Positions 3 through 62,761 of a DNA stretch of 64,000 nt are shown here, piece after piece. Numbering within the stretch: position 1 is the stretch's first letter; every line of letters begins with the position of its first letter. The DNA lies in the IMG/VR virus record IMGVR_UViG_3300027668_001405, positions 73,798 to 137,797 of that record. The stretch is one strand, 5' to 3'. Position numbers and translations under genes: made by a program. Source of the DNA: a virus. The notes under the pieces were generated by a model that was not told the origin of the DNA, ran no database searches, and was given only the letters and a program-made list of their open reading frames with translations.

Positions 3-767
3 GAATACAAACATCATTTGTATCCTGAAGTAAACAAGCGTTGTAAAGACTTTATACAAAAATGGGGCGACAGTACAAAAGAACCTACTCGAGCAGATAC
101 AGAGCATGCACAAGGTCGCTTAGAAGAAGATTTTGAAGATGCCAATACAATTATTGATAATACTAGGCTACCTTGGGTACCAGTAAACATTTCAGTACCA
201 TGGAAGGACATTTGGTTAGAAGCTAGGCACTTGTTATACACCGAGTGCTTTACACCACACAGAACTGACGGCAGTGCAGGTTGGCTTAGTTTATGTATAC
301 ATGGCATGTCGTCTGTGCATACAAACTGTGCAGAAGATTATAACTTGCCAGACGAAGCAGAAGAAGAATTAAGCGAATGGACAGACATAGCAAAGTTCTG
401 CCCAATTACAGTTGAGTGGATGAAAGATGCAATGTTGTATGAGCAGTTTACTCGTGTAAGATTTATGTGTGTATTACCGGGTGGCTGGATTGAGCCTCAC
501 CGAGACACAGACAAAGTAGCTGGATTAGGTGCAACTAATGTTGCTATCAACAATCCAGATGGATGTAGACTAATTATGGAACAATATGGCGAGCTACCAT
601 TTACACCTGGATCTGTTTTTAAAATAAATACTGGATATAATCATATGGTATATAATGATAGTAACGAGCCACGTTTTCATATGATATTTGACGGTCGACC
701 AGATGACACGTTTAAAAGGAAAGTAAACACTCAATATAATTGGATGTTCGACAAAAAGAAGAAATAA
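3..767 (+). CDS. Asp/Asn beta-hydroxylase-like 2OG-Fe(II) oxygenase (5' partial)
   Basis: RVRFMCVLPGGWIEPHRD (HxD) and distal NHMVYN..EPRFHMIFD motifs. The frame is open to the window edge (EYKHHLYPE), so the TTG at 18 is probably not the true start. Confidence 0.8.
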   Translation, partial: EYKHHLYPEVNKRCKDFIQKWGDSTKEPTRADTEHAQGRLEEDFEDANTIIDNTRLPWVPVNISVPWKDIWLEARHLLYTECFTPHRTDGSAGWLSLCIHGMSSVHTNCAEDYNLPDEAEEELSEWTDIAKFCPITVEWMKDAMLYEQFTRVRFMCVLPGGWIEPHRDTDKVAGLGATNVAINNPDGCRLIMEQYGELPFTPGSVFKINTGYNHMVYNDSNEPRFHMIFDGRPDDTFKRKVNTQYNWMFDKKKK

Positions 768-769
768 TT

Positions 770-1822
770 ATGCCAAAGTGTTTAATGTTTAAAAATGGTG
801 TTACAATAGGACCGATCGGAAACGTTCGTCCTTGTTGTATGTACATGAATGACGACATTGAACAACGTTATAATGAAGATGGGTGGCGAGAAAAGTTTGA
901 CGAACTATACGAACAAAGTCTAACTAAATGGCTGCCTAACTGTTATGAATGTAAAGCAGAAGAAGACCGAGGTGGCAACAGTCTACGCATGGATGCTAAC
1001 AAATGGTTTGACGGTAAAGAAGGAATTCAATATTGGGATTTAAAATTGCACAACACATGTAATCTTACGTGTGTAATGTGTAATCCAATAAGCAGTAGCA
1101 AATGGCAGAAGCTAGTAAATGAGAATCCTGAAGAAGATTTCTTACGTGTTGTTAAAAGCGAAGCAAAGATTAAAACAGGGTGGCATAAAGATATACTTCC
1201 ATTAATGATGGAACAGCTATATGACACTAAGTATTTAAAGTTTACAGGCGGAGAGCCTTTCTTAATACCACATGTAAGAAAGATTATTAAACGTTTGTAT
1301 GAAGAAGAAGTATCACCAGCAGTACGACTAAGTATTATTACAAACGGCACAGTTCCAATTGATGCTGAAATGCTTAAAATGTTACTAACGTTTAAAGACG
1401 TAGTATTCCTAGTAAGCATAGATGGAATAGAAGAACGCTTTGAGTATATAAGACAAGGCGCTAACTGGAAAGAAGTAGAACAGAACCTAAAGACATTTAA
1501 GGAAATTGAGGTGAATAATAACAACTTCCACCTCAACATAAATTACTTGCCTATGTCAATAAATGCCGCACAAAACGAATCAGCAACAGAATGGGCTAAG
1601 AAGTTAAAAATTAACCTTAGTAAGAGTGTTGAAATATATAGGCCAAAGTATTTGACATATGCCAGTTTAAGTGTTAAACTAAGGGATAGATATAATATAA
1701 CCTCAGTACATGAGTATGACGAGGAGCAATATAACCAATTATTAAAACATATGGCTATAAAAGATAAGTTACTAGGCACCGACTTTAAGAGTGCTTGCCC
1801 GGAGTTCTTTGAAGATGAGTAA
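770..1822 (+). CDS. Radical SAM protein with N-terminal twitch-like domain
   Basis: N-terminal C..VRPCC..CYEC, then CNLTCVMC, FTGGEP, ITNGT, SIDG. ATG at 770 follows the upstream stop. Confidence 0.9.
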   Translation: MPKCLMFKNGVTIGPIGNVRPCCMYMNDDIEQRYNEDGWREKFDELYEQSLTKWLPNCYECKAEEDRGGNSLRMDANKWFDGKEGIQYWDLKLHNTCNLTCVMCNPISSSKWQKLVNENPEEDFLRVVKSEAKIKTGWHKDILPLMMEQLYDTKYLKFTGGEPFLIPHVRKIIKRLYEEEVSPAVRLSIITNGTVPIDAEMLKMLLTFKDVVFLVSIDGIEERFEYIRQGANWKEVEQNLKTFKEIEVNNNNFHLNINYLPMSINAAQNESATEWAKKLKINLSKSVEIYRPKYLTYASLSVKLRDRYNITSVHEYDEEQYNQLLKHMAIKDKLLGTDFKSACPEFFEDE

Positions 1823-3041
1823 AAAATTACCCAGCGATACTTTTTGTGTATTGCCATTTATGCATGCCGCAGTTAATCCTGGTGGTGGCTTTCGTGTTTG
1901 TTGTAACAGCAATCCAGCTAACAACAAGGTACTAAGAGATGACGGAAGTGGTAAAGCATATAGAATATTCAAAGACGACATTAACGAAATGTGGAACAGT
2001 CAATGGCTACAAAAGATTCGTAAGGAATTTATTGCAGGCGAACGTCCTGAAACTTGCCAGAGATGTTTCCGTGAAGAAGATGCAGGCATACGTAGTCCAC
2101 GTGCAGGTTATAATGAAAAGTGGTACAAGGAAGATGTTAAAGTAGCAGAAGTAATTCCATTAGACATACGTTATGTAGATCTACGTTTGGGTAACTTGTG
2201 CAACTTGAAGTGTCGTATGTGTAATCCATGGAGCTCTAGCATGTGGGTAAAGGATTGGAACAAAGTTACTGGAACAGCAGAGCTTACACCAAACGAACCA
2301 CTAAGCAAATCAGACCTTGAGTTTATGGAAGTAATGCAGGAATGGCCAGACCGTAAACAAACTGGTGTTAACTTTGTAGAGATTGCAAGCACTATAGAAG
2401 AAATATATTTAACAGGTGGAGAGCCTACTTTAGCTATATCGCAGTATGCATTATTTGACTATTGTATTGAGAATGATTTAGCCAGCAATATTAAACTAAA
2501 ATACAATACTAACCTAACAAACATTCCACAGAAAATGATTGACTATTGGAGTCACTTCAAAGGTGTGCAACTTAATTGTAGTATTGATGCAACAGGTGCC
2601 AGAGACAGGTACGTTAGGTATCCAAGTAGTTGGATGAAAATAGAACAAACATTTGATAAGCTATTAGCACTACCTAATGTAGGTATTCAAGTGCATTGTA
2701 CAGTACAAGTATTAAATATGTGTGCTATGAGTGAATTGTTTGATTGGACTAGAAGCAAAGGTATACCAGACAAAGATATATACTTAAACATTCTTAATCA
2801 TCCTGAGATGTACAATATTCGTACACTACCTACAGACTTAAAACAACTAGCAGAACAACGTTTACAGAATTATTTAGACATTCCAAAAGTTGCAGACTGC
2901 ATTAAGTATATGTGGGCTGAAGATTGGTATGATAAGCGTTGGCAAGAGTTTATTGACTTTAACAATAAGACAGATCAACTACAGAAAGGTAACCTACTTG
3001 AGGTGTGTCCAGAATTTACTAATTATATTGACCATAAATAG
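1815..3041 (+). CDS. Radical SAM protein with N-terminal twitch-like domain
   Basis: FCVLPF..RVCC..CQRC, DLRLGNLCNLKCRMC, LTGGEP, YNTN. GGAG at 1801 and ATG overlapping the previous stop. Confidence 0.92.
   Translation: MSKKLPSDTFCVLPFMHAAVNPGGGFRVCCNSNPANNKVLRDDGSGKAYRIFKDDINEMWNSQWLQKIRKEFIAGERPETCQRCFREEDAGIRSPRAGYNEKWYKEDVKVAEVIPLDIRYVDLRLGNLCNLKCRMCNPWSSSMWVKDWNKVTGTAELTPNEPLSKSDLEFMEVMQEWPDRKQTGVNFVEIASTIEEIYLTGGEPTLAISQYALFDYCIENDLASNIKLKYNTNLTNIPQKMIDYWSHFKGVQLNCSIDATGARDRYVRYPSSWMKIEQTFDKLLALPNVGIQVHCTVQVLNMCAMSELFDWTRSKGIPDKDIYLNILNHPEMYNIRTLPTDLKQLAEQRLQNYLDIPKVADCIKYMWAEDWYDKRWQEFIDFNNKTDQLQKGNLLEVCPEFTNYIDHK
3033..3040 (+). promoter_or_regulatory. Putative T4-like late promoter (CATAAATA)
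   Basis: Matches the TATAAATA-type motif and lies directly upstream of SD GGGGAG and the ATG at 3060. Confidence 0.5.
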
Positions 3042-3059
3042 TAGAAAGGGGAGAACAAC

Positions 3060-3740
3060 ATGGAATATTTAGATATATTAAAAAATAGAAGTACTACGTT
3101 CAGCTGGACAACCGAGATGATTCCAGATGATGTGCTACTTGAAGTATGTGAAGAAGTACATTTATATTGCCCAAGTAAGAATAAGAAAATACCTTATGTA
3201 GTTCATATAGTTGAAAATACAGAGCAAGAACAACGCAAAACAATACACTTAGCTTGTCATCGAAATACTGATAAATCTACAGCAGAAGATGGCGGCAATC
3301 CACAAGTATTAGCTCCTACCCTAATAGCATTTGTTAAACGTGAGGTTGAAGAAGCAGAAACAAGATACCAAACAATTGAGAAACGTGACGAACTAGGTAC
3401 TGCTAATACAGACAATATTGAAATTGGAATGGTTGCAGTAACATTTTTAAATGCACTTACTAGACGAGGATGGGATACAGGATTATGTCAATGTATAAGA
3501 GACAGAGACGGACTTGGAGCCTTGTTAGGTTTAGGCGGCCCAATAGATTTGTTTATTGGAGTAGGTAGACGAGAGTTAGAATCTACTGAAGGTGCTGTAA
3601 CAGAAAAAGTATTTGATGAATTTCATTGGCCAGCTTATAGAGATCCAAGAGATGACTTAATGAAGAAAATTCCATATCCGTATGGAATGAATCCGTATCC
3701 AAAACCGGAATTCAATGACGTATATAAAATTAAAAAGTAA
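3060..3740 (+). CDS. Nitroreductase-fold protein
   Basis: ILKNRSTTFSW (R-S-x-x-F FMN-binding start), CPSKN, IEIGM..GWDTGLC..LFIGVG. Confidence 0.6.
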   Translation: MEYLDILKNRSTTFSWTTEMIPDDVLLEVCEEVHLYCPSKNKKIPYVVHIVENTEQEQRKTIHLACHRNTDKSTAEDGGNPQVLAPTLIAFVKREVEEAETRYQTIEKRDELGTANTDNIEIGMVAVTFLNALTRRGWDTGLCQCIRDRDGLGALLGLGGPIDLFIGVGRRELESTEGAVTEKVFDEFHWPAYRDPRDDLMKKIPYPYGMNPYPKPEFNDVYKIKK

Positions 3741-3749
3741 AGACACACT

Positions 3750-4313
3750 ATGAGAATAATTGCAACAGGAAACCCTAACTTTGGCGTAGCAAGTGCTATC
3801 GCTGAACGATGGCCAGAAACTACATTTGTTAATAGAACAGATTGGGGCTACGATTTATGCCAAGATGGATACAAAAAGAAGCTAGCAGAAAAGACTCTTA
3901 ACTATGACGTCTTTATTAACTGTTCCGCACTATGGCAGTACCACCAAACTCTCCTACTAGATGTAGTCTATAAAAACGCTTTAAAGAACCGTAAACGACT
4001 ACATATAGTTAGTTTAGGTAGCACTACTGACCGGGCCACTAAAGGCTCTGATTGGCACTATCAGCAAGAAAAGAAAGCGTTACGTAGTACAAGCAACGCA
4101 TTGGGCTTAAAAAGCATATGGGCAGGCGGTCCTAAGGTAAGTTATGTTACATTTGGAACACTTGAGAACAATGCACACAAGCACCCAGGTAGAGCTGTAA
4201 TGCAACTAAGTGAAGCAGTAGATATGATTGAATATGTAATTAGTCTTCCAGATCATTTAAACCTAAATGAAATAAGCATGGACCCAATACAAACAGAGTG
4301 GCCGAATGTCTGA
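3750..4313 (+). CDS. Short-chain dehydrogenase/reductase-like protein
   Basis: IIATGNPNFGVA Rossmann start, VFINCS, IVSLGS, YxxxK (YQQEK). Confidence 0.75.
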   Translation: MRIIATGNPNFGVASAIAERWPETTFVNRTDWGYDLCQDGYKKKLAEKTLNYDVFINCSALWQYHQTLLLDVVYKNALKNRKRLHIVSLGSTTDRATKGSDWHYQQEKKALRSTSNALGLKSIWAGGPKVSYVTFGTLENNAHKHPGRAVMQLSEAVDMIEYVISLPDHLNLNEISMDPIQTEWPNV

Positions 4314-5484
4314 AGATAAAATGTGCTACATGCCTTGGCACGGAATTACGCTGAGTGCTAATGGCGATATTAAACCTTGTTGTCAATTTAGTAACAAAGG
4401 ACGTAGACCTAATACTGAACACGACACTATTATGGAAAACTTTAATAGTGAACGTATGCAAGAATTACGTGGACAGTTTCTAATAGGTGAACAACCTAAA
4501 GCATGTAACAGTTGTTGGGAGAGAGAAGACTTAGTAGGCAAGAGTAGACGCTTATGGTTCAATGAAAAGTTTATGAAAGACGACGAAGCTTTTCAACAAG
4601 GATACAACCCGTCAGACCTAGTAGTACCTAATCCTAAATTATATCAAGCAGATATTAACTTGTCAAACGTATGCAATTTGAAGTGTCGTATGTGTGGAAG
4701 TTGGGCCAGTAACAGTTGGTTCAAAGAAGAAATAGCACTAGCAAAAATAGACAAACGTTATGAGAAGAATGAACGTGTTGTTCCAATACAACAATACGAC
4801 TTAGAAGATTTACGCAATATGCTACCTCACTTGAAAGAAGTCAAACGTATAGACTTCAAGGGTGGCGAGCCTATGATGGCAAAGCATCACAATCAATTCC
4901 TGCAATGGCTTATTGAAGAAGATATGACAGACATAGAATTGTTTTACACTACCAACGGAACAGTACAGAATCCTAAAATTATGGACTTGCTCAAACACTT
5001 CAAACGTGTTAGTATATGTTTTAGTATAGAAGGTACTGGAGATTTATATAGATACATCAGAGGCGGTAGGTATGACATAGAAGGTTTTGAAAAATGCGTA
5101 GCAGTTTACGACAAATTAGAAAACGTACAAATTATGTTTAATGTAACATTACAGAACTATAACGTATTCAACTTGCCTGAACTACATGAGTTTTTACACG
5201 ATTTAGAAGATAAATATAACAGAGTAAGTGCTAAACATAGTTTTGGTACAATCTGTAATAAACCTGCTTACCTAAGCCCAATTAATTTACCAGACGATTT
5301 ACGTGATCAAGCAGTTGAGCGTTTATCATTATATGAAGATTTCGACCAATTGGTAAAGAGTATGAATAAGCGTGTATTCGACCCAGAACTATGGGAAGTG
5401 TTTATTAACTTTACTAACGACCTAGACAAAATGCGAGGAGACAGTGTGTTAAAATCTGTGCCTGAGCTAAAGGATCATTTTTAA
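4306..5484 (+). CDS. Radical SAM protein with N-terminal twitch-like domain
   Basis: CYMPW..IKPCC..CNSC, CNLKCRMC, FKGGEP, YTTNGT. Confidence 0.92.
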   Translation: MSEDKMCYMPWHGITLSANGDIKPCCQFSNKGRRPNTEHDTIMENFNSERMQELRGQFLIGEQPKACNSCWEREDLVGKSRRLWFNEKFMKDDEAFQQGYNPSDLVVPNPKLYQADINLSNVCNLKCRMCGSWASNSWFKEEIALAKIDKRYEKNERVVPIQQYDLEDLRNMLPHLKEVKRIDFKGGEPMMAKHHNQFLQWLIEEDMTDIELFYTTNGTVQNPKIMDLLKHFKRVSICFSIEGTGDLYRYIRGGRYDIEGFEKCVAVYDKLENVQIMFNVTLQNYNVFNLPELHEFLHDLEDKYNRVSAKHSFGTICNKPAYLSPINLPDDLRDQAVERLSLYEDFDQLVKSMNKRVFDPELWEVFINFTNDLDKMRGDSVLKSVPELKDHF

Positions 5485-6203
5485 TGCTAGTAGGAATTGA
5501 AGACAACCATGCACCCAAAGACGAGTTACTTCGAGTAGAATGGAACTTAGGCAAACGTTGTAACTATAACTGTAGCTACTGTGGTAACGAACTACATAAC
5601 AAGACAAGCGACCATATGAATTGGGAAGTGTACACAGCTACAATTGATAAAATTGTTGCGGCAGCTAATGGCAAGAAGATTAAAATTAGTTTTACAGGTG
5701 GGGAACCATTTGTACATCCACAATTTATTGATATGATGAAGTATGCTAAAGAGAATGGCGTATACAGATTAAGTGTAACTACCAACGGAAGTCCACCACC
5801 AAAGATATATAAGAAAGCATTGCCGTACTTGCATTACGTAGTAATAAGCTACCACTTTGAATTTGCTTACCACGACAAAGTTATTAATAACATTGTAGGC
5901 ATGTGGTCAGACATTCAAGAGTATCGCAAGCAAGATCAGTGGAAAGGTATGCACGTACACATTATGGCACTACCTGGAAAGCTAGCACAATGGCAAGAGA
6001 TTATAACAGAATTAAAAGACTGTGGAGTTGAATATACAATACGTAAAATTAGACCACGTGTTAACATGGCTCGAACAGGCTGGAACAAACCACATCAAGA
6101 TGGAATGTTAGGGCAACACCCTACTCACGAAGAAACCGAGAAGTATGCAGGACAATATTATAGTCCGGAAGAAGAGGAATGGCTTACTGCCCAAAATGCT
6201 TAA
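5484..6203 (+). CDS. Radical SAM core only (N-terminal part of an apparently split paralog of 10078..11265)
   Basis: VEWNLGKRCNYNCSYC, FTGGEP, TTNGS, ISYHFEF. It has no auxiliary Cys domain. Confidence 0.88.
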   Translation: MLVGIEDNHAPKDELLRVEWNLGKRCNYNCSYCGNELHNKTSDHMNWEVYTATIDKIVAAANGKKIKISFTGGEPFVHPQFIDMMKYAKENGVYRLSVTTNGSPPPKIYKKALPYLHYVVISYHFEFAYHDKVINNIVGMWSDIQEYRKQDQWKGMHVHIMALPGKLAQWQEIITELKDCGVEYTIRKIRPRVNMARTGWNKPHQDGMLGQHPTHEETEKYAGQYYSPEEEEWLTAQNA

Positions 6204-6822
6204 TCAATCAGATGACAAATTGGAAATTGAACTAACTAGCAAGTGTGCATTACAATGCCCAGCTTGTGCAAGAGTGACACAATCTGATATGAAACAAGAA
6301 TGGGATGCAGGACATTTAAGCAAAGAATTATTATTTAGAATATGTGACACTACAAACTTTCATAGATATCAATTTGTAGGTTGTTACGGAGATCCTATAT
6401 ACCATCCTGACTTTTTGGAAATATGTAAATATTTTATGGCAGCAGGTAAGAAGATACTAGTGCATACAAATGGTAGTGCAAAGCCAGAAAAGTTTTGGAA
6501 GGAAGCAGCAGACATAGTTTGGAAAGGATGTATATTTACATTCAGCGTTGATGGACTAGAAGATACTAACCACATATATCGTAAGGGTTCTAAGTGGAAG
6601 CAAATATTAACAGCAATGAAATATATGGCTAGTATACCTAGAGAAAACAGACCAACATTAGAATGGAAGTTTTTAGTATTCCCATACAATAAGCATCAAA
6701 TAGAAGAAGCACGTACACTAGCAAACGAGCTAGGGTTTACAAAGTTTGAAGCATGGGATAGTTATAGAAATGCTAATTCTTATAACGTACCAGCAGAGGA
6801 GCTTCATAACTATGTTTCATAA
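6196..6822 (+). CDS. Radical SAM core only
   Basis: IELTSKCALQCPAC, GCYGDP, HTNGS, FSVDGLEDTNHIYR, WKFLVFPYN. ATG at 6196 overlaps the upstream stop. Confidence 0.88.
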   Translation: MLNQSDDKLEIELTSKCALQCPACARVTQSDMKQEWDAGHLSKELLFRICDTTNFHRYQFVGCYGDPIYHPDFLEICKYFMAAGKKILVHTNGSAKPEKFWKEAADIVWKGCIFTFSVDGLEDTNHIYRKGSKWKQILTAMKYMASIPRENRPTLEWKFLVFPYNKHQIEEARTLANELGFTKFEAWDSYRNANSYNVPAEELHNYVS

Positions 6823-7141
6823 GAATTTAGATCCTCAGTGTAGAAAAGAGAACATGCAGGAAAAGAATAATATTCAGCTTAGTGCTACTGGTTATTTAAA
6901 ACCTTGTTGTTTTTATGGTACAAGCATTAACTGGAAACAGCTAATGACATGGGCAGACAATCGAGGACTTGATATAGAGAATTTGAATATTACTAAACAT
7001 AGTGTAGAGAAGATATATAACTCTCCATTATGGGCAAACATGTTGCTAGGACAAGTTACAGGCGACTTACCAACTCCATGTTGGGACCTGTGCAGAGTTA
7101 ATAGCACAAATAAAATAGATGTAAAAAAACATGCAAAATAG
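6812..7141 (+). CDS. Free-standing SPASM/twitch-like Fe-S domain protein
   Basis: PQC..GYLKPCCFY..PCWDLC. AGGAG SD upstream of ATG 6812. Confidence 0.75.
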   Translation: MFHKNLDPQCRKENMQEKNNIQLSATGYLKPCCFYGTSINWKQLMTWADNRGLDIENLNITKHSVEKIYNSPLWANMLLGQVTGDLPTPCWDLCRVNSTNKIDVKKHAK

Positions 7142-8438
7142 AGACCACGAACAACTAGCAATAAAGGAAGCTAAGGCCTGGTTACTCGAGCCTGGTAATA
7201 ACTTCTGTGCTATGCCGTTTATACATATGGCAATTGAAGCCACTGGCGACATACGTCCATGTTGCATGGGCAAGCCTTTAGAAGGAATGAGTATAATAGG
7301 TAGTACAGTTGCAGAACAGTTCAGGTCTCCAATAAGAGAAGAGTTTGTAGAAAAATTTAGAAACAATTCAAAGCCAGCTGAGTGTTCAGCGTGTTGGAAA
7401 GATCCTTTTATTAGAGCAAAGTTTTCAACCTCACCTGGAGCATTATCATCTACAATAAATTTTATGAACACTGGATCTATTGAGAAAGAACTAATATGGT
7501 TAGAGATTAAGCCGGGCAATAGATGTAATTTAAAGTGCAGGATATGTGGAGTACACAACAGTAGTGCATGGGCAAAAGATGCTAACTCATTACGCAATTT
7601 TAAATTTGGCGAGAATGTTCCTTTTAAAGAAAGTGAAGCATTCCAAGTAACACAAGCTGGCGAGTGGATTGAAGATGAAAACTTCTGGACTCAACTGTCT
7701 GGATTTGAGTCTATTGAGTTTTTACATTTTATGGGCGGAGAACCTTTTATGGTACCTGAACATTTTCAAATGCTAGAACACCTGGTTGCAATGCCACACT
7801 TGGATACATCAAGAATAACGTTAGCTTACAATACAAATGGCACATATTTTCCTAGCGAAGAGAACTTAGAACTATATAAGAATTTTAAGAAAGTACATAT
7901 GTCACTAAGTATAGACGACTTTGGACCTAGATTTGAATATCAACGTAAACTAGCTGAATGGGACCAAGTAAAAGAGAACCTTAGAAAGTTTGCTTTATTA
8001 GGAGAAGATGATAAGTTCTTTGTTAATCTAGATCCTACTGTAAGTAACTATAACATATTTTACATGGCAGAGATTTGGGACGAGTTCACTAAACTTGGCT
8101 TTAGGTTTCAAAGAGGTGGATTGAATCATTTTGTATTTACTGGTCCAGATGCAATTATTAATATTCCAGTTGAGATGAAGAAAATAATAACTGATAAATA
8201 TGAGTATGCACGTACAAATACAGGACTTGTTGAAGCCTATACAGTGTCAGCAATAGATTACATGAATAGTCAAAGACCAAATCCTGAAGCTTGGAGTGAC
8301 TTCATAAATAAAACTATGCACTTGGACAGTATCAGAAAAGAATCGTTTGAACAGACGTTTCCAGAGATGCATGCACTAATAAAGGGTACAGATGGTTTTA
8401 AGAGACAGATGGCTATAATGGAATCCATGAATGAATAA
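7131..8438 (+). CDS. Radical SAM protein with N-terminal twitch-like domain
   Basis: FCAMPF..IRPCC..CSAC, CNLKCRIC, FMGGEP, YNTNGT, LSIDD. Confidence 0.92.
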   Translation: MQNRDHEQLAIKEAKAWLLEPGNNFCAMPFIHMAIEATGDIRPCCMGKPLEGMSIIGSTVAEQFRSPIREEFVEKFRNNSKPAECSACWKDPFIRAKFSTSPGALSSTINFMNTGSIEKELIWLEIKPGNRCNLKCRICGVHNSSAWAKDANSLRNFKFGENVPFKESEAFQVTQAGEWIEDENFWTQLSGFESIEFLHFMGGEPFMVPEHFQMLEHLVAMPHLDTSRITLAYNTNGTYFPSEENLELYKNFKKVHMSLSIDDFGPRFEYQRKLAEWDQVKENLRKFALLGEDDKFFVNLDPTVSNYNIFYMAEIWDEFTKLGFRFQRGGLNHFVFTGPDAIINIPVEMKKIITDKYEYARTNTGLVEAYTVSAIDYMNSQRPNPEAWSDFINKTMHLDSIRKESFEQTFPEMHALIKGTDGFKRQMAIMESMNE

Positions 8439-8793
8439 TTTTAAAAACTTAATCAAGCACTATGATGATAAACCGTCTGAAGAGGATAACGCAAACAATG
8501 TTATGGCTCGTGATGAGAATGATTTCCGTGGATGGGAATGTTGGGCAGGAGTACAAAACATTACTATTAGTAATACGGGAGATGTGTACAGAGCAATATG
8601 TAAAGTGGGTGGTAAACTTGGAAACATTTATGATGGATTTGAGATGCCCCAAGAAACAATTATATGTAATAAGCCTAGATGTATTTGTTCAGCAGATGTG
8701 CAGTTATCTAAAGCGTTACCAGAGCACGTACATAAATTAAGAATAGGCAATGAATCAAACCAATTAAACTTTGATGACATATATAGATCATGA
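8431..8793 (+). CDS. Free-standing SPASM/twitch-like domain (C-terminal part of the split paralog)
   Basis: FRGWECWAG..GDVYRAIC..LGNI..ICNKPRCICSAD, collinear with the C-terminus of 10078..11265. Confidence 0.8.
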   Translation: MNNFKNLIKHYDDKPSEEDNANNVMARDENDFRGWECWAGVQNITISNTGDVYRAICKVGGKLGNIYDGFEMPQETIICNKPRCICSADVQLSKALPEHVHKLRIGNESNQLNFDDIYRS

Positions 8794-10088
8794 ACAATTA
8801 TAACAAATTTAAAGAACGAGCAATAGGCAAGCTACATGGGATGCCAGTAGACAAAGAAACATTTTGTCCACTACCATTTGTACATGTTAGCACAATGCCA
8901 CATGGTGAAGTTAAACTATGTTGTAGAGCTCAACCACCTAAGAACGGAACAAACCCTAACGTTAAGAATCCTGAGTTTAATCTTAAAGATTATTGGCACA
9001 GTGAATATATGAATGAGGTGCGTGATGACTTAATATTAGGTGTAAAGAATTCACAGTGTAGTAATTGCTGGAAGATGGAAGACAACGAAATTGTTAGTTT
9101 ACGTATGAATAGAATTACTGACTTAATGGACAACGATACATACAAACAGAATATAAACAAGTACCTAGTAGAACGTGAAGTAGATTTTAGTATTCCACTA
9201 ATTGAACTTAAACTAAGCAACGTGTGCAACTTTAAGTGTCGCATGTGTTGGCCAAAGGATAGTTCAAAGTGGGTAACAGACTGGGATAAAGTTTCTAAAT
9301 TTTACAGTGAAGGCGACCAGCGTTACATAGAAGAGATTGTAGATAGCAACGGCCTACGTAAATCTAGGGTAATGAATTTATATGAGAAGGATAAAGACTT
9401 TGTTGATCAATTACTTGAATTGATGTCAACAGTTGAAGAAATAGAATTTGCCGGAGGCGAACCATTAATGGATCCAATACATTATCGTGTATTAAACAAC
9501 ATACCAAATCCTGAGAATGTTACACTAAAATACAGCACAAACCTAAGCATTATGAAGATGGGCAAAAACAACGTAATTGACTTGTGGAAGAAGTTCAAGA
9601 GCATTAAACTTACAATTAGCATAGATGGATATAAAGATCTTAATGCTAAAATTAGACGTGGTGCTGACTGGGACCTACTAAAGCATAACATTGCACTTGT
9701 TAAAGAGCATTGTCCTAACATAGATGTAATCAAAGGATCAACATGTATTAGCGGTATGAACGCAGAAGACTTGGGCAAAACAGCTGAAGCTATTGTGTTT
9801 GAATTAGGTATACATTGGCACACAAGTCGTGTACAATGGCCCGATTTTTTACATGCTAACGTATTAAGCCCTGTACAACTAAAACGCGGTATTGATAGCT
9901 TACAGACGCTCTTAGACACCCTGCCGGGGCGTGATAACGTACCCAGACAGTTTATGATGGAAACACATATTAAAGGTGCAATGAGCTGGTTAGAGTCATG
10001 TATAGAGAAAAACGAACACCACAACAAATACACAAAATTTACTGAATTTAATGCAAAAATAACGGAGATGGATACAAATGGAAAATAA
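8790..10088 (+). CDS. Radical SAM protein with N-terminal twitch-like domain
   Basis: FCPLPF..VKLCC..CSNC, CNFKCRMC, FAGGEP, YSTN, ISIDG. Confidence 0.92.
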   Translation: MNNYNKFKERAIGKLHGMPVDKETFCPLPFVHVSTMPHGEVKLCCRAQPPKNGTNPNVKNPEFNLKDYWHSEYMNEVRDDLILGVKNSQCSNCWKMEDNEIVSLRMNRITDLMDNDTYKQNINKYLVEREVDFSIPLIELKLSNVCNFKCRMCWPKDSSKWVTDWDKVSKFYSEGDQRYIEEIVDSNGLRKSRVMNLYEKDKDFVDQLLELMSTVEEIEFAGGEPLMDPIHYRVLNNIPNPENVTLKYSTNLSIMKMGKNNVIDLWKKFKSIKLTISIDGYKDLNAKIRRGADWDLLKHNIALVKEHCPNIDVIKGSTCISGMNAEDLGKTAEAIVFELGIHWHTSRVQWPDFLHANVLSPVQLKRGIDSLQTLLDTLPGRDNVPRQFMMETHIKGAMSWLESCIEKNEHHNKYTKFTEFNAKITEMDTNGK

Positions 10089-11265
10089 AGAAGACTTGAA
10101 ATGGAGCGAATATGACTTTACTAAAACACCATACGATAAGTTGGTGCGTGTGGGTCAGCGTAATATTCTGTACCGCGACATGTTTACTGTTAGTTGGTTG
10201 CTTGGCCGTTTTTGCAACTATAATTGTAGCTACTGTTGGCCTTACGCTAGGAGTGGTAAAAAAGATCACAGACCTACTGAACTAAATTTAAAGACTATTG
10301 ATGAGATTAAACGTCAAGCACGTGAACGTGGATTTAATAGTTTCCACTTTAGTCTAAGTGGAGGCGAACCAACTTTCCATCCAGGCTACTTAGACATGTT
10401 AAAGCATCTAAGTGATGATGCACATAACACAAACTATACAAGTGTACACATGACATCAAATTGTAGTCGTAATATGAAATGGTTTAAGACATATTGTGAA
10501 TACGCAAGTAAATTCCATCGTGCAAGTATTACAGCTAGTTTGCATACTGAACATGTTAACACACCTGAGAAGATGCAAGACTTGGCAGAGAAATTAATCA
10601 TGTGTCAAGAACATGATGTACAGGTAACTATTAACATGGTTATGGTTCCTGATCTATTCCAAGAATATTATGATAATGCATTATTTTATCATAACCAAGG
10701 AATTAACGTTACGCTAAAACCTCAATCAGATCCAACAGCAAGTAAAATTGTAGATGGTTACACACCTGAGATGTTAGCTAAGTTGCACAACGGTATGCCA
10801 CAACGTAGTTACACAGAAGCTAAAGCACAACATAAGCAGTTAGTGGTTAGACCTAAGCCTACATTTAAAATTGATAAAGACGATCATTATCGTAAGCAAA
10901 CAGCGGCAGTGCCGTGGAATATGCAAGTAGAATTTAGAGACGATAAAGGTGATCCATATTACATGGACCAAGCAGAACGTTTTAATGCGTTTAACTTTAA
11001 TAAGTTTAAAGGGTGGGAATGTAGTAGTGGATATCGTAGTATTATTATCCGTGAACCTGATGGAAGTGTGAAGCGTAGTTATAGCTGTCACGATCAACCT
11101 CTAGGTAACATTGAAACAGGATTTAAGTTGTTTGATGGACCTAAGGTGTGTACAACAGATTCATGTGTTAGTAGTGCAGATAGTAAAATCCCCAAACGAG
11201 CGCCGGGGACTAAGTTGCCTTTATGGCCAGGTGATAAAACATATGAGCATGGAACGTTTGACTAA
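10078..11265 (+). CDS. Radical SAM protein with C-terminal SPASM/twitch-like domain
   Basis: SWLLGRFCNYNCSYC, LSGGEP, MTSNCS. C-terminal GWECSSG..SYSC..VCTTDSCVSSAD. Confidence 0.92.
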   Translation: MENKEDLKWSEYDFTKTPYDKLVRVGQRNILYRDMFTVSWLLGRFCNYNCSYCWPYARSGKKDHRPTELNLKTIDEIKRQARERGFNSFHFSLSGGEPTFHPGYLDMLKHLSDDAHNTNYTSVHMTSNCSRNMKWFKTYCEYASKFHRASITASLHTEHVNTPEKMQDLAEKLIMCQEHDVQVTINMVMVPDLFQEYYDNALFYHNQGINVTLKPQSDPTASKIVDGYTPEMLAKLHNGMPQRSYTEAKAQHKQLVVRPKPTFKIDKDDHYRKQTAAVPWNMQVEFRDDKGDPYYMDQAERFNAFNFNKFKGWECSSGYRSIIIREPDGSVKRSYSCHDQPLGNIETGFKLFDGPKVCTTDSCVSSADSKIPKRAPGTKLPLWPGDKTYEHGTFD

Positions 11266-11266
11266 G

Positions 11267-11737
11267 CTATTTTATGTTAGCCCACTTCTTTTCTGAACAG
11301 CCTTCTTTCTGTGCCCAACGAATAAACAATCCACACTCTCTACCATTAGCTTCAATCTCCCAAGGCAGATCCCAATAGTCTGTGGCATCACTAATCATTT
11401 GATCTTTCCACTTCCAATACTTTGCTTTACTGGCCTGTGTGTTTGAGTGTACGTAGTCAGTCATCTCTCTACGAGCATACTGTTTAACATGTACCATTTC
11501 GTGTGCAACAGTTTCTAGCATTGTACGCAAGCCTACAGTATGATCAACTTCAATAAAGAAGTCTCTATCTGTCTCACGCAAACAATATCCGTTTGCATCA
11601 CCTTTTAGTTTTGTTAGTTTAACCTCTATTCTAAGACTTGCCATACGTGGCATTAATTTCTTTATGCAATAATTAACCATAGAACGAGCATACTCACGTT
11701 GGCGAGTCTTGCCTCCTATAATTTCAATATCATTCAT
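11267..11737 (-). CDS. Putative zinc metallopeptidase (HExxH)
   Basis: ETVAHEMVHVKQY followed by YWDLPWEIEA. Confidence 0.7.
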   Translation of the reverse strand: MNDIEIIGGKTRQREYARSMVNYCIKKLMPRMASLRIEVKLTKLKGDANGYCLRETDRDFFIEVDHTVGLRTMLETVAHEMVHVKQYARREMTDYVHSNTQASKAKYWKWKDQMISDATDYWDLPWEIEANGRECGLFIRWAQKEGCSEKKWANIK

Positions 11738-43905: not shown

Positions 43906-44369
43906 ATTTTATACTCAAAGTTTTGGGTAGTAGGATTAATGTTAATTAACCTAGCACCGTTTCTAATGTGATAATGTGTCGCCATTGGCGTTAGTGGTGA
44001 TAATGTCATAATAGTTTCTATGTTACCTTTTGTCCTCATAAATTTTAAAAGCTCTTCCATGATCTTTTTGCCTGCACCTTTTTTCAAAGACCAAACTGTG
44101 TATGCTATTGCTATCTTGCCATCTACGTGACTCATAAGATCTAGTTCTTTAACAGTAGTCGGAATTTCATCTGTGTACGCAATACAAATAACACCTTCTA
44201 TATCGCCATCGTATTGTAGTCCAAATATCTTCCTACCTTTGTCTTTGCGAAATTCGTTGCTTAGTTCGGGCCTAACAGGATCATGTGTTATATCAATGCT
44301 ATCTAATTCTACTATTTCTGCTCGCTTGATCCAACTATAAAAGTCGAAATCGTATCCTGCTATTTTCAT
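43902..44369 (-). CDS. GNAT-like hypothetical protein
   Basis: IAYTVWSLKKGAGKKI resembles an acetyl-CoA binding loop; TLSP motif. Confidence 0.5.
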   Translation of the reverse strand: MKIAGYDFDFYSWIKRAEIVELDSIDITHDPVRPELSNEFRKDKGRKIFGLQYDGDIEGVICIAYTDEIPTTVKELDLMSHVDGKIAIAYTVWSLKKGAGKKIMEELLKFMRTKGNIETIMTLSPLTPMATHYHIRNGARLININPTTQNFEYKI

Positions 44370-45550
44370 AAATTGATTTTCCAGTATTTTTCTAATTGTG
44401 GGATATAGTTAAGTATACTTGTTTTTCTGTGTTTGTCAAGTATTTCCGTTGTTTTACAGAAGAAATTCCAATCATCTATATCTTCTTCTGTGCGAGGTTT
44501 TCTAAGTGAATATATTAATGCGTCTGTATATTTTGAATTAGCTTCTAACCAATCTGCTAATTCCAACTTGTACTCTACATCAGGGTGAACTGACATACGC
44601 AAGTATCTAGGAAATGCAAGTGGGCTATTAAATAAGCCGGCGTTATGTGTTAAAACATGTTCACTACCCCATTCAACATATTCTTTAATGTTATACACAT
44701 TGAGTAGTTGTGGAGTATATGACATACTAATTTTAAAATTGTGCTGTTGTTCTATAATTCTATCTTGTATTAACTTACCTTTATACTTTCCAATTGGTGT
44801 GCTTGGACGAATGTATTCATACAAATGATTTATGCCGTCCATACTTACAATTAGTTTTGCATTTAGTTTTGTTAATTTCTTTACAATATCATCTTTTACT
44901 AATGTAAGATTAGTTATAATTTTTAACTCTCCTTTGTAGCTGTGTTCATTTAACTTATCCAATAGGTAAACAAACTGCGGTGTATAAAAAGGTTCGCCAC
45001 CACTTACATCAATTAATGATGCATTTAAAAACTCTTGTAAATTATCATCTACAACATTACTTGGTAGCCCATAATCTCTGCCTTTGGGATTAAAAATTGC
45101 TCTTCCAACTTCGTCTCCTAATGCATCGGATAATACTTTAGCATCTTTATACCAACCTGTGCTTCTATGTGGACTGCACATAGTACATCTTAGATTACAT
45201 GCATTACTAAAGTCTATCTTAATCTTACGTAGTTTTCCCGGTTGAGTTCCTTTGGTTGCTCCATGAGCAAATTCGCTAAAGTTATTATAACGCATACTTT
45301 GACCAACAGCTTCTTCACCATTAATACAAAGTTCACATCCAGATGGTAAAATATTAGTAAGTGTTTGCTTTCTTGCTAACTGATAATCTTCACTATCAAA
45401 TGCTTGCTGTATACTCATGTCGTTAATGTTTCCAACAAAGCCTTTATGTATGCAACAGAATCCTATACGTCCTTCTTGATCAACGTGTACTTCGTTATGT
45501 GGACTTACGCAATAAGTGTTATCTGGACTGGGTCTATTTTGTGAAGACAT
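44366..45550 (-). CDS. Radical SAM protein with N-terminal twitch-like domain
   Basis: YCVSPH..GFCC..CELC, CNLRCTMC, VSGGEP, ITNLT, SMDG. Confidence 0.9.
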   Translation of the reverse strand: MSSQNRPSPDNTYCVSPHNEVHVDQEGRIGFCCIHKGFVGNINDMSIQQAFDSEDYQLARKQTLTNILPSGCELCINGEEAVGQSMRYNNFSEFAHGATKGTQPGKLRKIKIDFSNACNLRCTMCSPHRSTGWYKDAKVLSDALGDEVGRAIFNPKGRDYGLPSNVVDDNLQEFLNASLIDVSGGEPFYTPQFVYLLDKLNEHSYKGELKIITNLTLVKDDIVKKLTKLNAKLIVSMDGINHLYEYIRPSTPIGKYKGKLIQDRIIEQQHNFKISMSYTPQLLNVYNIKEYVEWGSEHVLTHNAGLFNSPLAFPRYLRMSVHPDVEYKLELADWLEANSKYTDALIYSLRKPRTEEDIDDWNFFCKTTEILDKHRKTSILNYIPQLEKYWKINL

Positions 45551-46643
45551 ACACACCCTCGAATTTTTCTCTACCCTCTTTCTTATCATTGCCCACACCG
45601 GGTCTAGTGTTAAGCATCATCTTAATTGTTTCTGTGTGTTTAAACCCACACTTCTCAGCTAATTCAATCCAACGGTCAACTACAAAGTATTCTTTATTAC
45701 CATAGCTTTTATAATCAGCAATGTTAGTAGCAAATACTCCATCTGAGTTTAAACCTTTGTGTATGTTTTGCATTGTGGGTGCAACATATCCTTCAAACCA
45801 ATCATCCATTGTAGTGTATTTAACCATGCACTGCGTTGGTTCGTCTGAGTATTTTTCTAAATTAAAATAAGGTGGGCTACTAAATGCTAAGTCAATATTT
45901 TCGCATTGGTATTCTTCTGAAGGTGAACAAATAATCTCAGAATCATTTCCCATTAATTTATCTAAATAATTTAAATAGTTAAATGTTTCTGTGTTTGGAT
46001 CTGTGCCAATATAAGTGTAGTTCATGTTACTACTATTGATACCCAACAACCTACCTCCGTATCCACAACTGTAATCATATACTCTGCCCCATAGTACAGG
46101 ACATAAACGTTCTGCAATTGCCCTTGCATTTTTAGGTTTAAAGTTTTGTACGTTCTCACCTGTTACTAATTCAAGTGAACGTCTAACGGCTGTAGGATAT
46201 ACTAACTTGTTGCCTTCTCTAAACTCAAAACATATTCTTATAGCTCTGCGTAGTTTTGCATCATTAAAGAACCTGTCTTTTAAACTATTACTACCTCGGC
46301 CTTTTGGTTCAGCTGTTTGCATATTAGTAAATACAAACCTGTTGATTGTTTGACCTTGATTATTTCCAAGTCCTATTCTATTGTTTTCTACTTTGTTGTA
46401 AGATGAAGATTTAAAATTCTTAATTGCAGTTTTTAAACCTTGTTCAGTGAAATAGATAATTGGTACAATACCTCTGTTACGATAGATATTGAATACACGC
46501 TCTATTGTGTCTTGTGGATCTTTTTGATATACTTCGTTGGTAAACGTATCCAATTCACTATAGTGATCTTCATATCCTGTGAACTCATCATTGTGAATGT
46601 GTTCTGGTTTGATACCCCAGAATGAATGGATACGCTCTATCAA
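45534..46643 (-). CDS. Orphan amino-DNA methyltransferase (N6A/N4C type)
   Basis: YDYSCGYGG (motif I) followed by FSSPPYF (motif IV); TTG start with GGAG SD. Confidence 0.85.
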   Translation of the reverse strand: MIERIHSFWGIKPEHIHNDEFTGYEDHYSELDTFTNEVYQKDPQDTIERVFNIYRNRGIVPIIYFTEQGLKTAIKNFKSSSYNKVENNRIGLGNNQGQTINRFVFTNMQTAEPKGRGSNSLKDRFFNDAKLRRAIRICFEFREGNKLVYPTAVRRSLELVTGENVQNFKPKNARAIAERLCPVLWGRVYDYSCGYGGRLLGINSSNMNYTYIGTDPNTETFNYLNYLDKLMGNDSEIICSPSEEYQCENIDLAFSSPPYFNLEKYSDEPTQCMVKYTTMDDWFEGYVAPTMQNIHKGLNSDGVFATNIADYKSYGNKEYFVVDRWIELAEKCGFKHTETIKMMLNTRPGVGNDKKEGREKFEGVYVFTK

Positions 46644-58888: not shown

Positions 58889-60121
58889 TTATAACTCCAT
58901 ATCCTTGTTGTAAGTATTTATCGATTTATTTAAATCAACAAACGTTTTAGGCCAGTCGGTGCCTCTTAACCTGTCTAGAGAGTCTAGGAACTCGGCACAG
59001 CTATACGGATCGCTATTGTATTCTAAGTTAGCTTGTAAATAGCTTATTAAGTGTGCAATCTTGTCACTATGTACAGAGTCTGTGTATAACTGTATTAGTT
59101 CTAGTTTTGCTTCCTTTGTTAAATTTTTAGCATCAAACATGTCTGGATGTGACAATATTCTAATATTAATATAATACTTGCTAAAATGATCTAGTAGTTT
59201 TAAGAATGTAAACGCATTTAATACTTGCCATGTAATACTTATTTCTATTTGTGTATTTGGAAGTGTGTCTTCCATGCGTTTAACGTTTTCGTTTATCTTG
59301 TACCATTTACTTGGAAAACGTATATAGTTATTCTGGTCTCCATAATCGTCTATACTTACTCTTAGCATTAACTTCTTAAAATGTTTCCATTGATCAATTG
59401 CACGTTGATGTACGTTTGTAATGTTAGTGTCGTACTCTAGTGTAACATTGCCTGCTACACCTGCATCTATTAGCTTTTGTAAAAATACATAATGATGTTC
59501 TATAAGCATAGGTTCACCACCTACTAGATATACATGTTCTAACTGATCTATGTTAGCTTCCATTTGTTCCCAAAAATGTTCACTTTTCCACCAATCATAT
59601 TCTACGTTTGATTTATTGTTTATATCTATTTTTGTATCACTGTCGTAGAAATGATCTGTCTTGTAAACACTAGCCCAATCTTTGTACCACATGTTACTGC
59701 TTTGTGGTCCACACATTACACACTTTAAGTTGCATAAGTTTCCAAATCGTAAATCCCAATATATAGGCTTTTGTGTAGTACTTCCATCTGGTGCTGTTAG
59801 CTGTACTGCTTTATCGTAATCAAATGTGTCTTTGTACATCTTGTTTGTAAATGTACGTCTACTCTTGCCACCATTTTCTTCTTTAACCCAACATGTATTA
59901 CACTCTGTAGGCTTTTCTCCTGCAAGAAACTGCTTACGTATTTTACGTGTAAATTCACTGTTGTGGATTTCTTCTATGGTGTGTTCTTTAAAGTTGTGTC
60001 CAGTAAGTCCGCCATTGCCCGAATCGTGATTACTCATTAGGCAACAAACTCTACTAGCTCCGTTTGTTTTACTTGCAGAGTGAATCCACGGAATAGAACA
60101 AAAGCTAGTCTGGGACATCAC
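58889..60121 (-). CDS. Radical SAM protein with N-terminal twitch-like domain
   Basis: FCSIPW..RVCC..CNTC, DLRFGNLCNLKCVMC, LVGGEP, YDTN. Confidence 0.92.
   Translation of the reverse strand: MMSQTSFCSIPWIHSASKTNGASRVCCLMSNHDSGNGGLTGHNFKEHTIEEIHNSEFTRKIRKQFLAGEKPTECNTCWVKEENGGKSRRTFTNKMYKDTFDYDKAVQLTAPDGSTTQKPIYWDLRFGNLCNLKCVMCGPQSSNMWYKDWASVYKTDHFYDSDTKIDINNKSNVEYDWWKSEHFWEQMEANIDQLEHVYLVGGEPMLIEHHYVFLQKLIDAGVAGNVTLEYDTNITNVHQRAIDQWKHFKKLMLRVSIDDYGDQNNYIRFPSKWYKINENVKRMEDTLPNTQIEISITWQVLNAFTFLKLLDHFSKYYINIRILSHPDMFDAKNLTKEAKLELIQLYTDSVHSDKIAHLISYLQANLEYNSDPYSCAEFLDSLDRLRGTDWPKTFVDLNKSINTYNKDMEL
58915..58922 (-). promoter_or_regulatory. Putative late promoter (GATAAATA)
   Basis: Upstream of GGAG SD and ATG 58887. 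Confidence 0.55.
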
Positions 60122-61280
60122 CGTAAATCCAATCGGCTAGCTCCGAATCAAAACTTTCCATTGTTACTGCTCCGTTTATATCGTAGTATTCAACAAACTG
60201 CTTTACTGTTGCTTTACGTTTGGGATCGTTAATGTAAGGCTTACGCATCTCATTAATTACATGATCAACTCCTTCTAGTTTATTCTTATGTTCTTCAAAG
60301 AATGCTAAACTTTCTGCTTTGAATCTATCCGGAATGTTTTCCATCATAACTTCAGTCTTATTAATCACTGGTCTAATTTGTACTTTAGCGGCTGGATAAT
60401 GTTCCCATAAGTAAGTTATTAGTTTAGGTATATGTCTTACGCTTAAACTGTTAGCTGTGATATCCCATATACGCAATTTAAATTCTTTATAATATTGATC
60501 CATTACTGCAATCTTTTCTTCCCAAACATCATCTTGTCTAGTCCAATCGTTTGCTTTACCCCAACCATCAATACTAAATCTAAGGTTAACGTTTTCAACA
60601 GTTTTTAATTTTATAAGATCTTTTTCTCGTAATAGTCTAGTACCATTTGTGTTAATAACAAAACGTGCTCCTGGTGCAATTGCACCTAAGCGTTGTACTG
60701 TACTTGGAAAGTTTTTAAGATAAAAAGGTTCGCCACCTGCAAGGTAAACGTGCTTTAAATCTTTATCTACACTTGAGATAATGTTTTCCCAAGCTACCGG
60801 ATCATCACTCCAATCATAATTTTGTTTAGCGTACTTTGCAGCTTCTTTTTCTAGCCTGCCTTCTTTCCAATCAAAATGGTCTGCCATTGTTTTATGATTA
60901 TGTAGAATCTTGTTACTGTTACCAGCGAAACACATAACACATGCTAGGTTACATACGTTTCCTAATCTTAAATCTAATGCGTGTATTTTTTCATCTTGAA
61001 ATGGAACGCCTTTATTAATCATGCCTAGTGCTTTTTGTCTAAAGCTACGTATACCATCACGTTCTGGATCATAACATTTAAAACATCCCATAGGCTCGCC
61101 GCCGCCGGCAATCTCTGCTCGCACTGCATGCATTTCTGAACTATTCCATATTTCACTAAGACTATGTTCTTTAATGTGATATGGTAGTTTGTGTTTTAGG
61201 TTTTTACAACATAATGCTACGTATCCATCGTTATCAACGAATGTAAAATTATTTGTATATATACAGTATTTTTCTGTCAT
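60105..61280 (-). CDS. Radical SAM protein with N-terminal twitch-like domain
   Basis: YCIY..ALCC..CFKC, CNLACVMC, LAGGEP, NTNGT. Confidence 0.92.
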   Translation of the reverse strand: MTEKYCIYTNNFTFVDNDGYVALCCKNLKHKLPYHIKEHSLSEIWNSSEMHAVRAEIAGGGEPMGCFKCYDPERDGIRSFRQKALGMINKGVPFQDEKIHALDLRLGNVCNLACVMCFAGNSNKILHNHKTMADHFDWKEGRLEKEAAKYAKQNYDWSDDPVAWENIISSVDKDLKHVYLAGGEPFYLKNFPSTVQRLGAIAPGARFVINTNGTRLLREKDLIKLKTVENVNLRFSIDGWGKANDWTRQDDVWEEKIAVMDQYYKEFKLRIWDITANSLSVRHIPKLITYLWEHYPAAKVQIRPVINKTEVMMENIPDRFKAESLAFFEEHKNKLEGVDHVINEMRKPYINDPKRKATVKQFVEYYDINGAVTMESFDSELADWIYGDVPD

Positions 61281-61298
61281 GGAGTCTCTTTTTGTTAT

Positions 61299-61327
61299 AT
61301 TATACAGGATTAAGCTGTACTTGTCAA
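61299..61327 (-). promoter_or_regulatory. Sigma70 promoter for radical SAM genes
   Basis: TTGACA-N17-TATAAT; a CTAAATA variant lies just upstream at 61331-61337. Confidence 0.88.
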
Positions 61328-61333
61328 TATTAT

Positions 61334-61588
61334 TTAGTCAGTTACAACTGGCTCAAAATTGTCTAAGTAGTACTGCCTTAATACATGATGATCTATATTT
61401 TTATAGGACTGGCCTATATTCATAGTGTACCAACCAAGAGCATGTCTAAATACGCCACCGTTCTCTTCTTTTTTTCGTAAGAGTATAGCATGTAGCTTTT
61501 CAGCAACACGTTGATATCTGTCTTTGTTTATTACTGGCTTGATTTTTCTTGCAAGTGCAGTAAAAGGGCTTATCTCATCTATTCTCAT
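61334..61588 (-). CDS. Small putative virion protein between duplicated radical SAM genes
   Basis: MRIDEI start; own GATAAATA at 61609-61616. Confidence 0.65.
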   Translation of the reverse strand: MRIDEISPFTALARKIKPVINKDRYQRVAEKLHAILLRKKEENGGVFRHALGWYTMNIGQSYKNIDHHVLRQYYLDNFEPVVTD

Positions 61589-61597
61589 AACTATTTC

Positions 61598-62755: not shown

Positions 62756-62761
62756 TGGCCA

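Follow-up and report, generated by a model that had tools for sequence, protein, structure and literature searches.

Auxiliary-cluster domains of the SPASM and twitch types have been described as covalent parts of radical S-adenosylmethionine (SAM) enzymes. A free-standing auxiliary-cluster domain gene beside radical SAM genes is known from the GeoRSP system, in the form of the GeoRSP system SPASM domain protein (TIGR04304), for which we know of no demonstrated fission series of fused, adjacent and interrupted forms. Our literature search found no paper in which radical SAM enzymes are treated together with the splitting-off of an auxiliary domain by gene fission. Here we describe what appears to be a radical SAM enzyme encoded in two pieces by a marine phage, IMG/VR virus record IMGVR_UViG_3300027668_001405. 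The window that was analyzed is a stretch of 64,000 nucleotides (nt) covering bases 73798-137797 of this 137.8-kb record (G000), and coordinates are window positions unless they are marked G000:C1. The two pieces, termed the N-half and the C-half, and a full-length paralog are as follows, with lengths in amino acids (aa) and with open reading frame abbreviated to ORF.

5484..6203, + strand: N-half, radical SAM core subunit, 239 aa (Pfam PF04055)
8431..8793, + strand: C-half, free-standing Cys-rich domain, 120 aa (aligned to residues 288-376 of the paralog)
10078..11265, + strand: paralog, full-length, 395 aa, core and C-domain in one ORF (Ndom 29-242, Cdom 303-381)

The twitch/SPASM enzymes of solved structure used for comparison, BlsE (7vob), SkfB (6efn), MoaA (1tv7), CteB (5wgg), anSMEcpe (4k36) and BtrN (4m7s), share with the phage family a partial TIM-barrel core followed by a Cys-rich C-terminal domain. 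In the solved enzymes, however, the auxiliary domain belongs to the same chain, whereas in the phage it is a separate gene located 2.2 kb from the core gene, and the two groups resemble each other in sequence only within the first 110-170 positions of the core. Among named models, that of the STM4011 family (NCBIfam NF038073) alone covers both phage parts colinearly; in it the C-half matches profile positions 195-254 (E 8.6e-5) and a fused relative, P0092, matches positions 10-253 of 278 (E 7.8e-12). With 21.9 bits for the C-half, 35.6 for the paralog and 45 for fused P0092 against a curated cut-off of 200, the phage proteins are distant relatives of the STM4011 family and not members of it, and the model itself describes a single-chain, uncharacterized protein.

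The N-half carries the radical SAM core only (PF04055, E 5.6e-15; 56.3 bits vs. a cut-off of 29.5). Its CX3CX2C motif is CNYNCSYC at residues 26-33, with C26, C30 and C33 invariant in 21 homologs, and the TGGEP motif corresponding to the GGE motif of the radical SAM core (T71, G72, G73, E74 and P75) is likewise invariant in homologs. Reductive cleavage of SAM is a predicted activity of the N-half. The N-half and paralog residues 34-115 align at 37% identity (E 3e-16), the profile alignment covers paralog residues 29-242, and the N-half ends at the ancestral inter-domain linker. The C-half aligns to paralog residues 288-376 at 36% identity (E 2e-13). Together the two ORFs reproduce the paralog, in agreement with an earlier note on this DNA, made from the letters alone, which had taken 5484-6203 as the N-terminal core of the paralog only and 8431-8793 as its missing C-terminus. 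The halves are in different reading frames.

The position of the break was located by comparison with a fused relative, P0071 (368 aa), in which residues 15-254 match the N-half (38% identity) and residues 258-367 match the C-half (46% identity). Only three residues lie between the two regions, and the break removes nothing. The AlphaFold2 (AF2) model of P0071 has a predicted local distance difference test score (pLDDT) of 88.3 and a predicted TM-score (pTM) of 0.86, with low confidence at residues 211-260 around the break, which separates a helix from the first C-domain strand. With solved radical SAM cores the model gives Z 14-16 (partial TIM-barrel core). It matched BlsE (7vob) at Z 16.2 (root-mean-square deviation 4.1, 271 residues aligned, model residues 26-364), SkfB at Z 15.9 and MoaA at Z 15.7, with CteB, PqqE and anSME next, and its alignments to BlsE, SkfB, CteB and anSME run through residues 346-366 of the C-domain. 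These fold neighbors act on sugars, nucleosides and peptides.

Altogether 110 viral loci were searched with profiles of the core and the C-domain. Among distinct viral loci, both domains are found in one ORF at 59, in adjacent ORFs at five (L013, L033, L034, L037 and L038, where the ORFs overlap by ATGA or by 8 nt) and in ORFs separated by an insert at six. One more adjacent split without insert, L127, came from the metagenome scan and is a GenBank metagenome contig. In a protein search, the split N-half form makes up a family of 229-256 aa proteins with dozens of clusters down to 41% identity, while fused forms of 295-379 aa turn up only at 40% identity or less. Full-length fused relatives colinear across the break and directly adjacent halves thus both occur, and by these comparisons of sequence the N-half and the C-half are pieces of one ancestral enzyme that was split by true gene fission.

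The arrangement is no assembly artifact, because two independent marine DNA runs yielded identical contigs that cover 5479-8547 and 5706-8648 and cross both junctions. In two RNA libraries the contigs match the DNA exactly and run unbroken through 6200 and 8431, and none of them skips the insert; they may stem from contaminating DNA and are no proof of transcription. A rejoining of the halves at the RNA or protein level, through an intron, trans-splicing, an intein or recoding, is extremely unlikely; the earlier note had named splicing as a case to be excluded, and the analysis found nothing in favor of any such rejoining. No joint in the RNA-library contigs skips the insert, the halves differ in reading frame, the intervening 2.2 kb encodes conserved proteins, and an Rfam scan of 4000-11500 for structured RNAs and introns gave no family at E <= 0.1. 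A single DNA contig (run X5) joins 6019 directly to 6860 and so leaves out 840 nt. The shorter side of this joint measures only 22 nt, which is below the reliability guide and too weak to interpret; the joint may come from a variant or a paralog.

Both halves have been kept, as the earlier note supposed. Pairwise ratios of nonsynonymous to synonymous substitution rates (dN/dS) among the window and loci L004, L006, L007 and L009 are 0.065-0.14 for the N-half and 0.046-0.11 for the C-half, equal to those of the paralog and of the neighboring genes twA and twD, with synonymous sites near saturation. Such values indicate that both halves are under purifying selection and that neither is decaying. 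The presence of an intact paralog 1.3 kb downstream could suggest that the halves are remnants of a broken gene heading for loss while the paralog does the work. We consider this very improbable given the dN/dS of 0.05-0.14 in both halves at nearly saturated synonymous sites, the open state of both frames in 13 of 13 split loci from lineages down to ~35% identity to the window N-half, and the spread of the split N-half form over dozens of protein clusters. The paralog, for its part, shares only 24-37% identity with the halves and has been conserved separately, with orthologs present in 27 viral contigs.

The 2.2 kb between the halves and the genes on either side are occupied by further radical SAM genes.

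4306..5484, + strand: twA, upstream N-terminal-twitch radical SAM gene (NF033640, 314 bits)
6196..6822, + strand: rsB, radical SAM core of a second split enzyme (Pfam PF04055)
6812..7141, + strand: spB, SPASM-like domain ORF in another frame (Pfam SPASM PF13186, E 2.4e-4)
7131..8438, + strand: twC, complete N-terminal-twitch radical SAM gene (NF033640, 272 bits vs. a cut-off of 170)
8790..10088, + strand: twD, N-terminal-twitch radical SAM gene (NF033640, 297 bits)

Where the earlier note counted three complete genes between the halves, three ORFs are indeed present, but they amount to one twitch radical SAM enzyme (twC) plus a split radical SAM enzyme (rsB|spB). Translation of rsB likely begins at the ATG at 6196, giving an overlap of 8 nt with the end of the N-half (the longest ORF begins at 6145), and rsB orthologs are found at the same place in L006, L009 and L032. 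spB overlaps the rsB stop by 11 nt (ATGTTTCATAA). In many relatives a single ORF of 340-390 aa corresponds to rsB and spB together (for instance L017 3916-5028, L102 and L084), and spB is, as far as such comparisons go, the detached C-terminal domain of rsB. Split pairs of the rsB|spB type occur three times in the record, at window 6196-7141, G000:C1:2171-3147 (- strand) and G000:C1:37614-38614 (+ strand). Since the rsB|spB split lies inside the insert, the window holds one split enzyme nested within another.

The content of the insert varies between relatives. It consists of twC only in L004, L007 and L128, of rsB and spB only in L009 and L032, where twC is missing from the gap, and of both in the window and L006. 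The inserted material appears to be array-internal and no foreign cassette, because a twC-like gene lies upstream within the array in L032, L033 and L034 and because the window rsB is closest to the two other split rsB|spB pairs of its own genome (46-48% identity). At the amino-acid level, the slot genes compared with L004, L006, L007 and L009 show identities of 60-64% (rsB), 38% (spB) and 47-53% (twC), whereas the flanking genes show 80-87% (N-half), 74-88% (C-half) and 77-80% (twA) in the same relatives. The far higher divergence of the slot genes suggests fast evolution or allele replacement within the slot.

The order of events was reconstructed from a careful tree of concatenated core and C-domain sequences from split and fused loci. 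Its topology is (P0071 fused, (L033, L034 adjacent), (L032 insert, (L127 adjacent, window clade insert))), with support of 100/100 for the window clade with L127 and of 100/97 for the clade with P0071. A second fission clade, comprising L013, L037 and L038, which are adjacent and without insert, is sister to the fused P0074 and P0080. From this placement of the forms, the fused state is ancestral and fission has occurred at least twice. Adjacent-split forms without insert (L033, L034, L127, L013, L037 and L038) are interspersed with insert-bearing forms on this well-supported tree, and on its evidence the split is older than the insert, which was not its cause.

These results bear directly on the proposal of the earlier note that a cassette inserted at the inter-domain linker had split an intact gene, in which case the adjacent forms would be later deletions of the insert. 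Insert-bearing forms do occur in two branches, L032 and the window clade, and the best matches of the L032 rsB are the rsB proteins of the window clade at the same position (36-39% identity), so one old insertion followed by loss in L127 is allowed. We nevertheless judge it improbable that a three-gene cassette came first, because the adjacent forms include L033 and L034, which diverge outside those with an insert, and L127, which lies among them, because the independent fission clade of L013, L037 and L038 has no insert at all, and because the rsB|spB pair shows a like fission with overlapping stop and start and without an insert. The content of the insert also varies among close relatives. 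The similarity of the DNA at the two junctions, to which the earlier note had drawn attention, loses its meaning on closer comparison. Both quoted strings occur in the sequence, but of randomly drawn pairs of 70-nt windows from this region 2.3% reach their local alignment score of 13, and scores of 12-19 are common between unrelated gene starts of the array. In relatives, the left junction compared with the right one gives only 8-12, and the C-half codons within the similarity differ in all of them. A junction repeat as a recombination scar was rejected on these grounds of a chance-level score without conservation in relatives. A mobile cassette, intron or intein was also rejected, with no flanking repeats above chance, no Rfam match and all of the inserted ORFs being radical SAM parts.

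Several lines of evidence point to continued partnership of the halves. Pairwise identities of the N-half and the C-half co-vary with r=0.96 across 11 split loci, a value attained in 0 of 2000 permutations. In the whole phage record just one core lacks a C-domain and just one C-domain lacks a core, and wherever enough downstream sequence was available, orphan cores have a C-domain ORF downstream (11 of 11). Co-folding of the N-half with the C-half from separate alignments gave an ipSAE of 0.89 (runs 0.88, 0.90 and 0.89), compared with 0.09 for the best of three controls. The ipSAE mark applied here is met by 58 of 80 solved complexes and by 2 of 110 mismatched pairs, counts that are only rough because our own alignments were used. 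The runs share at least 73% of contacts, with partner pLDDT of at least 81. The predicted interface places N-half residues 1-24 against C-half residues 5-13 and 41-50, and the matching segments in the fused P0071 model are strands 14-20 and 262-267. A sequence search of solved structures returned only a chance row for the C-half profile, with no solved C-domain homolog, and no match for the paralog alone; recall of a known complex is therefore unlikely for the C-half chain. According to the co-variation and the control-passing co-fold, the two halves probably reassemble as proteins in trans, a possibility that the earlier note had raised.

The C-half is a Cys-rich domain. Five cysteines (C37, C57, C79, C84 and C86) are invariant among its orthologs and four of the five are kept in the paralog. 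In the AF2 model of the C-half (pLDDT 88), strands 43-46 and 51-54 lie between C37 and C57, and the pattern around these two strands, C37-x12-G50-x6-C57, resembles the CX9-15GX4C hairpin of twitch/SPASM domains, although the spacing after the glycine is 6 and not 4. We infer that the C-half is a twitch-like auxiliary Fe-S subunit with a site on four or five invariant cysteines.

The explanation that we favor, with fairly good confidence, is a two-piece radical SAM enzyme that arose by fission at the linker and reassembles, with the slot between its genes filled later by array genes. Fission between the catalytic core and the Cys-rich C-terminal domain came first and produced two adjacent genes, and the core and the small domain would be translated separately from one tightly packed operon with overlapping stops and starts. 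The halves would then reassemble non-covalently, the N-terminal strand of the N-half pairing with the first strand of the C-half and so restoring the domain interface of single-chain relatives, while the C-half would carry the putative twitch-like Fe-S site on its invariant cysteines. After fission, the boundary between the adjacent halves probably became a permissive slot, into which twC and the already split rsB|spB moved or were copied, to be gained, lost or replaced within the window clade.

Several observations weigh against this account. On the tree, fused P0071 falls inside the split clade on a long branch, a placement that blurs the exact point of fission and would also allow a later re-fusion. 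The insert-bearing state requires two changes, and L032 and the window clade may represent one shared insertion that was lost in L127 or two insertions. The C-half has no Pfam match at E <= 0.01, including SPASM PF13186, and hhalign of the C-half against the N-terminal twitch domains of the array gave a probability of 0.5% (E 0.11) with only the C..G..C segment aligned. The isolated C-half model found nothing at Z >= 2 with VIA-align and nothing at E <= 0.001 with Foldseek, where the best matches were CteB (E 2.3) and anSME (E 3.0). As these direct tests are weak, the C-half is called twitch-like by inference only; the lack of a fold match for the isolated domain does not show that its fold is new. 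Finally, the C-half lies directly upstream of twD in every split locus, with an overlap of 4 nt (ATGA), and in a 556-aa ORF of L127 (1247-2917 of LWDU01004953.1) a C-half-like domain is fused in frame to a twD-like radical SAM enzyme. The protein cluster of this fusion numbers 17 members, spread over several contigs, and six or more of the members are 555-556 aa long. For these reasons the C-half could serve twD, or both enzymes.

It follows that the C-half may have changed partners, working with twD or bridging the core and twD, with the core active without it. Besides the constant adjacency to twD and the L127-type fusions, in which the N-half is a separate gene, this alternative is consistent with the presence of the Cys-rich domain at the N-terminus of the longer proteins P0123, P0149, P0169 and P0175; the domain is free-standing or N-terminal in many other representatives as well. 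A change of partner is still unlikely in our estimation. The N-half retains the conserved N-terminal strand that contacts the C-half in the control-passing co-fold, and the divergences of the two halves co-vary (r=0.96). Even in L127 the N-half-like gene (523-1254) lies directly upstream and overlaps the fused ORF by 8 nt, and twD already has an N-terminal twitch domain of its own. A viral-contig search with P0122 and P0123 found no close fused locus. In P0145 (370 aa) the order of domains is circularly permuted, with the Cys-rich domain (27-118) ahead of the radical SAM core and CNYNCSYC near residue 180.

The distribution of the domain indicates that it is a movable module, which may serve the N-half, twD or both. 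As a more speculative extension, for which we hold only a modest expectation, the Cys-rich domain would be a portable shared auxiliary subunit that docks on the N-half and can be tethered to twD, giving either a heteromeric machine with two catalysts or one Fe-S module for two cores, while the slot tolerates shuffling of pathway enzymes. This reading fits because the domain occurs fused to either neighbor, free-standing and permuted (P0145), and because the slot genes are hypervariable.

The split enzyme recognized here by linker fission belongs to a single tightly packed radical SAM gene array on the + strand at 740-11265, in which stops and starts overlap; for example, twA and the N-half share base 5484, at which twA ends and the N-half start codon begins. 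Five enzymes with an N-terminal twitch domain are encoded in the array (up2, up1, twA, twC and twD), of which twA, twC and twD exceed the NF033640 cut-off, while up1 and up2 match a profile made from the N-terminal-twitch paralogs of the array. The NF033640 family carries its auxiliary domain on the other side of the core, and the N-half falls outside it with 44 bits against the cut-off of 170. The GeoRSP SPASM protein (TIGR04304) is in turn of a sequence family other than that of the C-half, and its only match here, a weak one, is to twA. The remaining members of the array are a nitroreductase-like gene, a 187-aa ORF, the N-half, rsB, spB, the C-half and the full-length paralog. The nitroreductase-family gene (PF00881, E 4e-5) and the conserved 187-aa ORF lie at 3060-4313; the latter is without any Pfam match and accompanies the array in relatives at 76-90% identity. 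Double-length ORFs in L025 (1-2964, 988 aa) and L033 (4405-6996, 864 aa) each contain two complete N-terminal-twitch radical SAM units in one frame, which is the reverse of fission, namely a fusion of adjoining array genes.

The element that hosts the split enzyme is an abundant marine jumbo phage. Its DNA polymerase has 45-47% identity to the polymerases of Atu_ph07, 121Q, GAP32 and other jumbo myoviruses, the completeness of the record is ~40% (CheckV), and many studies of marine metagenomes contain the stretch nearly word for word, in 15 or more runs. A blastn search of GenBank phages with the array gave no match, and in tblastn the N-half gave only a weak match in an uncultured 735-kb phage and the C-half none; judged by these searches, no phage isolate among the GenBank phages searched carries the system. 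Across the whole 137.8-kb record, ~27 ORFs match the radical SAM profiles built here, arranged in several arrays on both strands, and this complement is unusually large for a phage. The radical SAM ORFs of the record include those at window 44369-45616 and 58892-62761 on the - strand, and PHROGs labels some of the record's radical SAM ORFs as radical SAM proteins. As many as 12 radical SAM genes have been noted in genomes of T4-like marine viruses (PMC5332604).

The forms collected here make up a natural series of fused, adjacent-split, split with genes between, re-fused to a neighboring enzyme and circularly permuted, and this series suggests that the radical SAM core and the Cys-rich domain are separable modules that can meet in trans. 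For enzymologists, the pair represents a ready two-piece system in which the auxiliary domain could be labeled, swapped or omitted without mutagenesis. For annotators, it means that a 'truncated' radical SAM core and a small Cys-rich ORF kilobases away can be one enzyme. Finally, the locus marks a very large uncharacterized radical SAM pathway, with ~27 radical SAM-type ORFs in the 138-kb record of this abundant jumbo phage from the sea.

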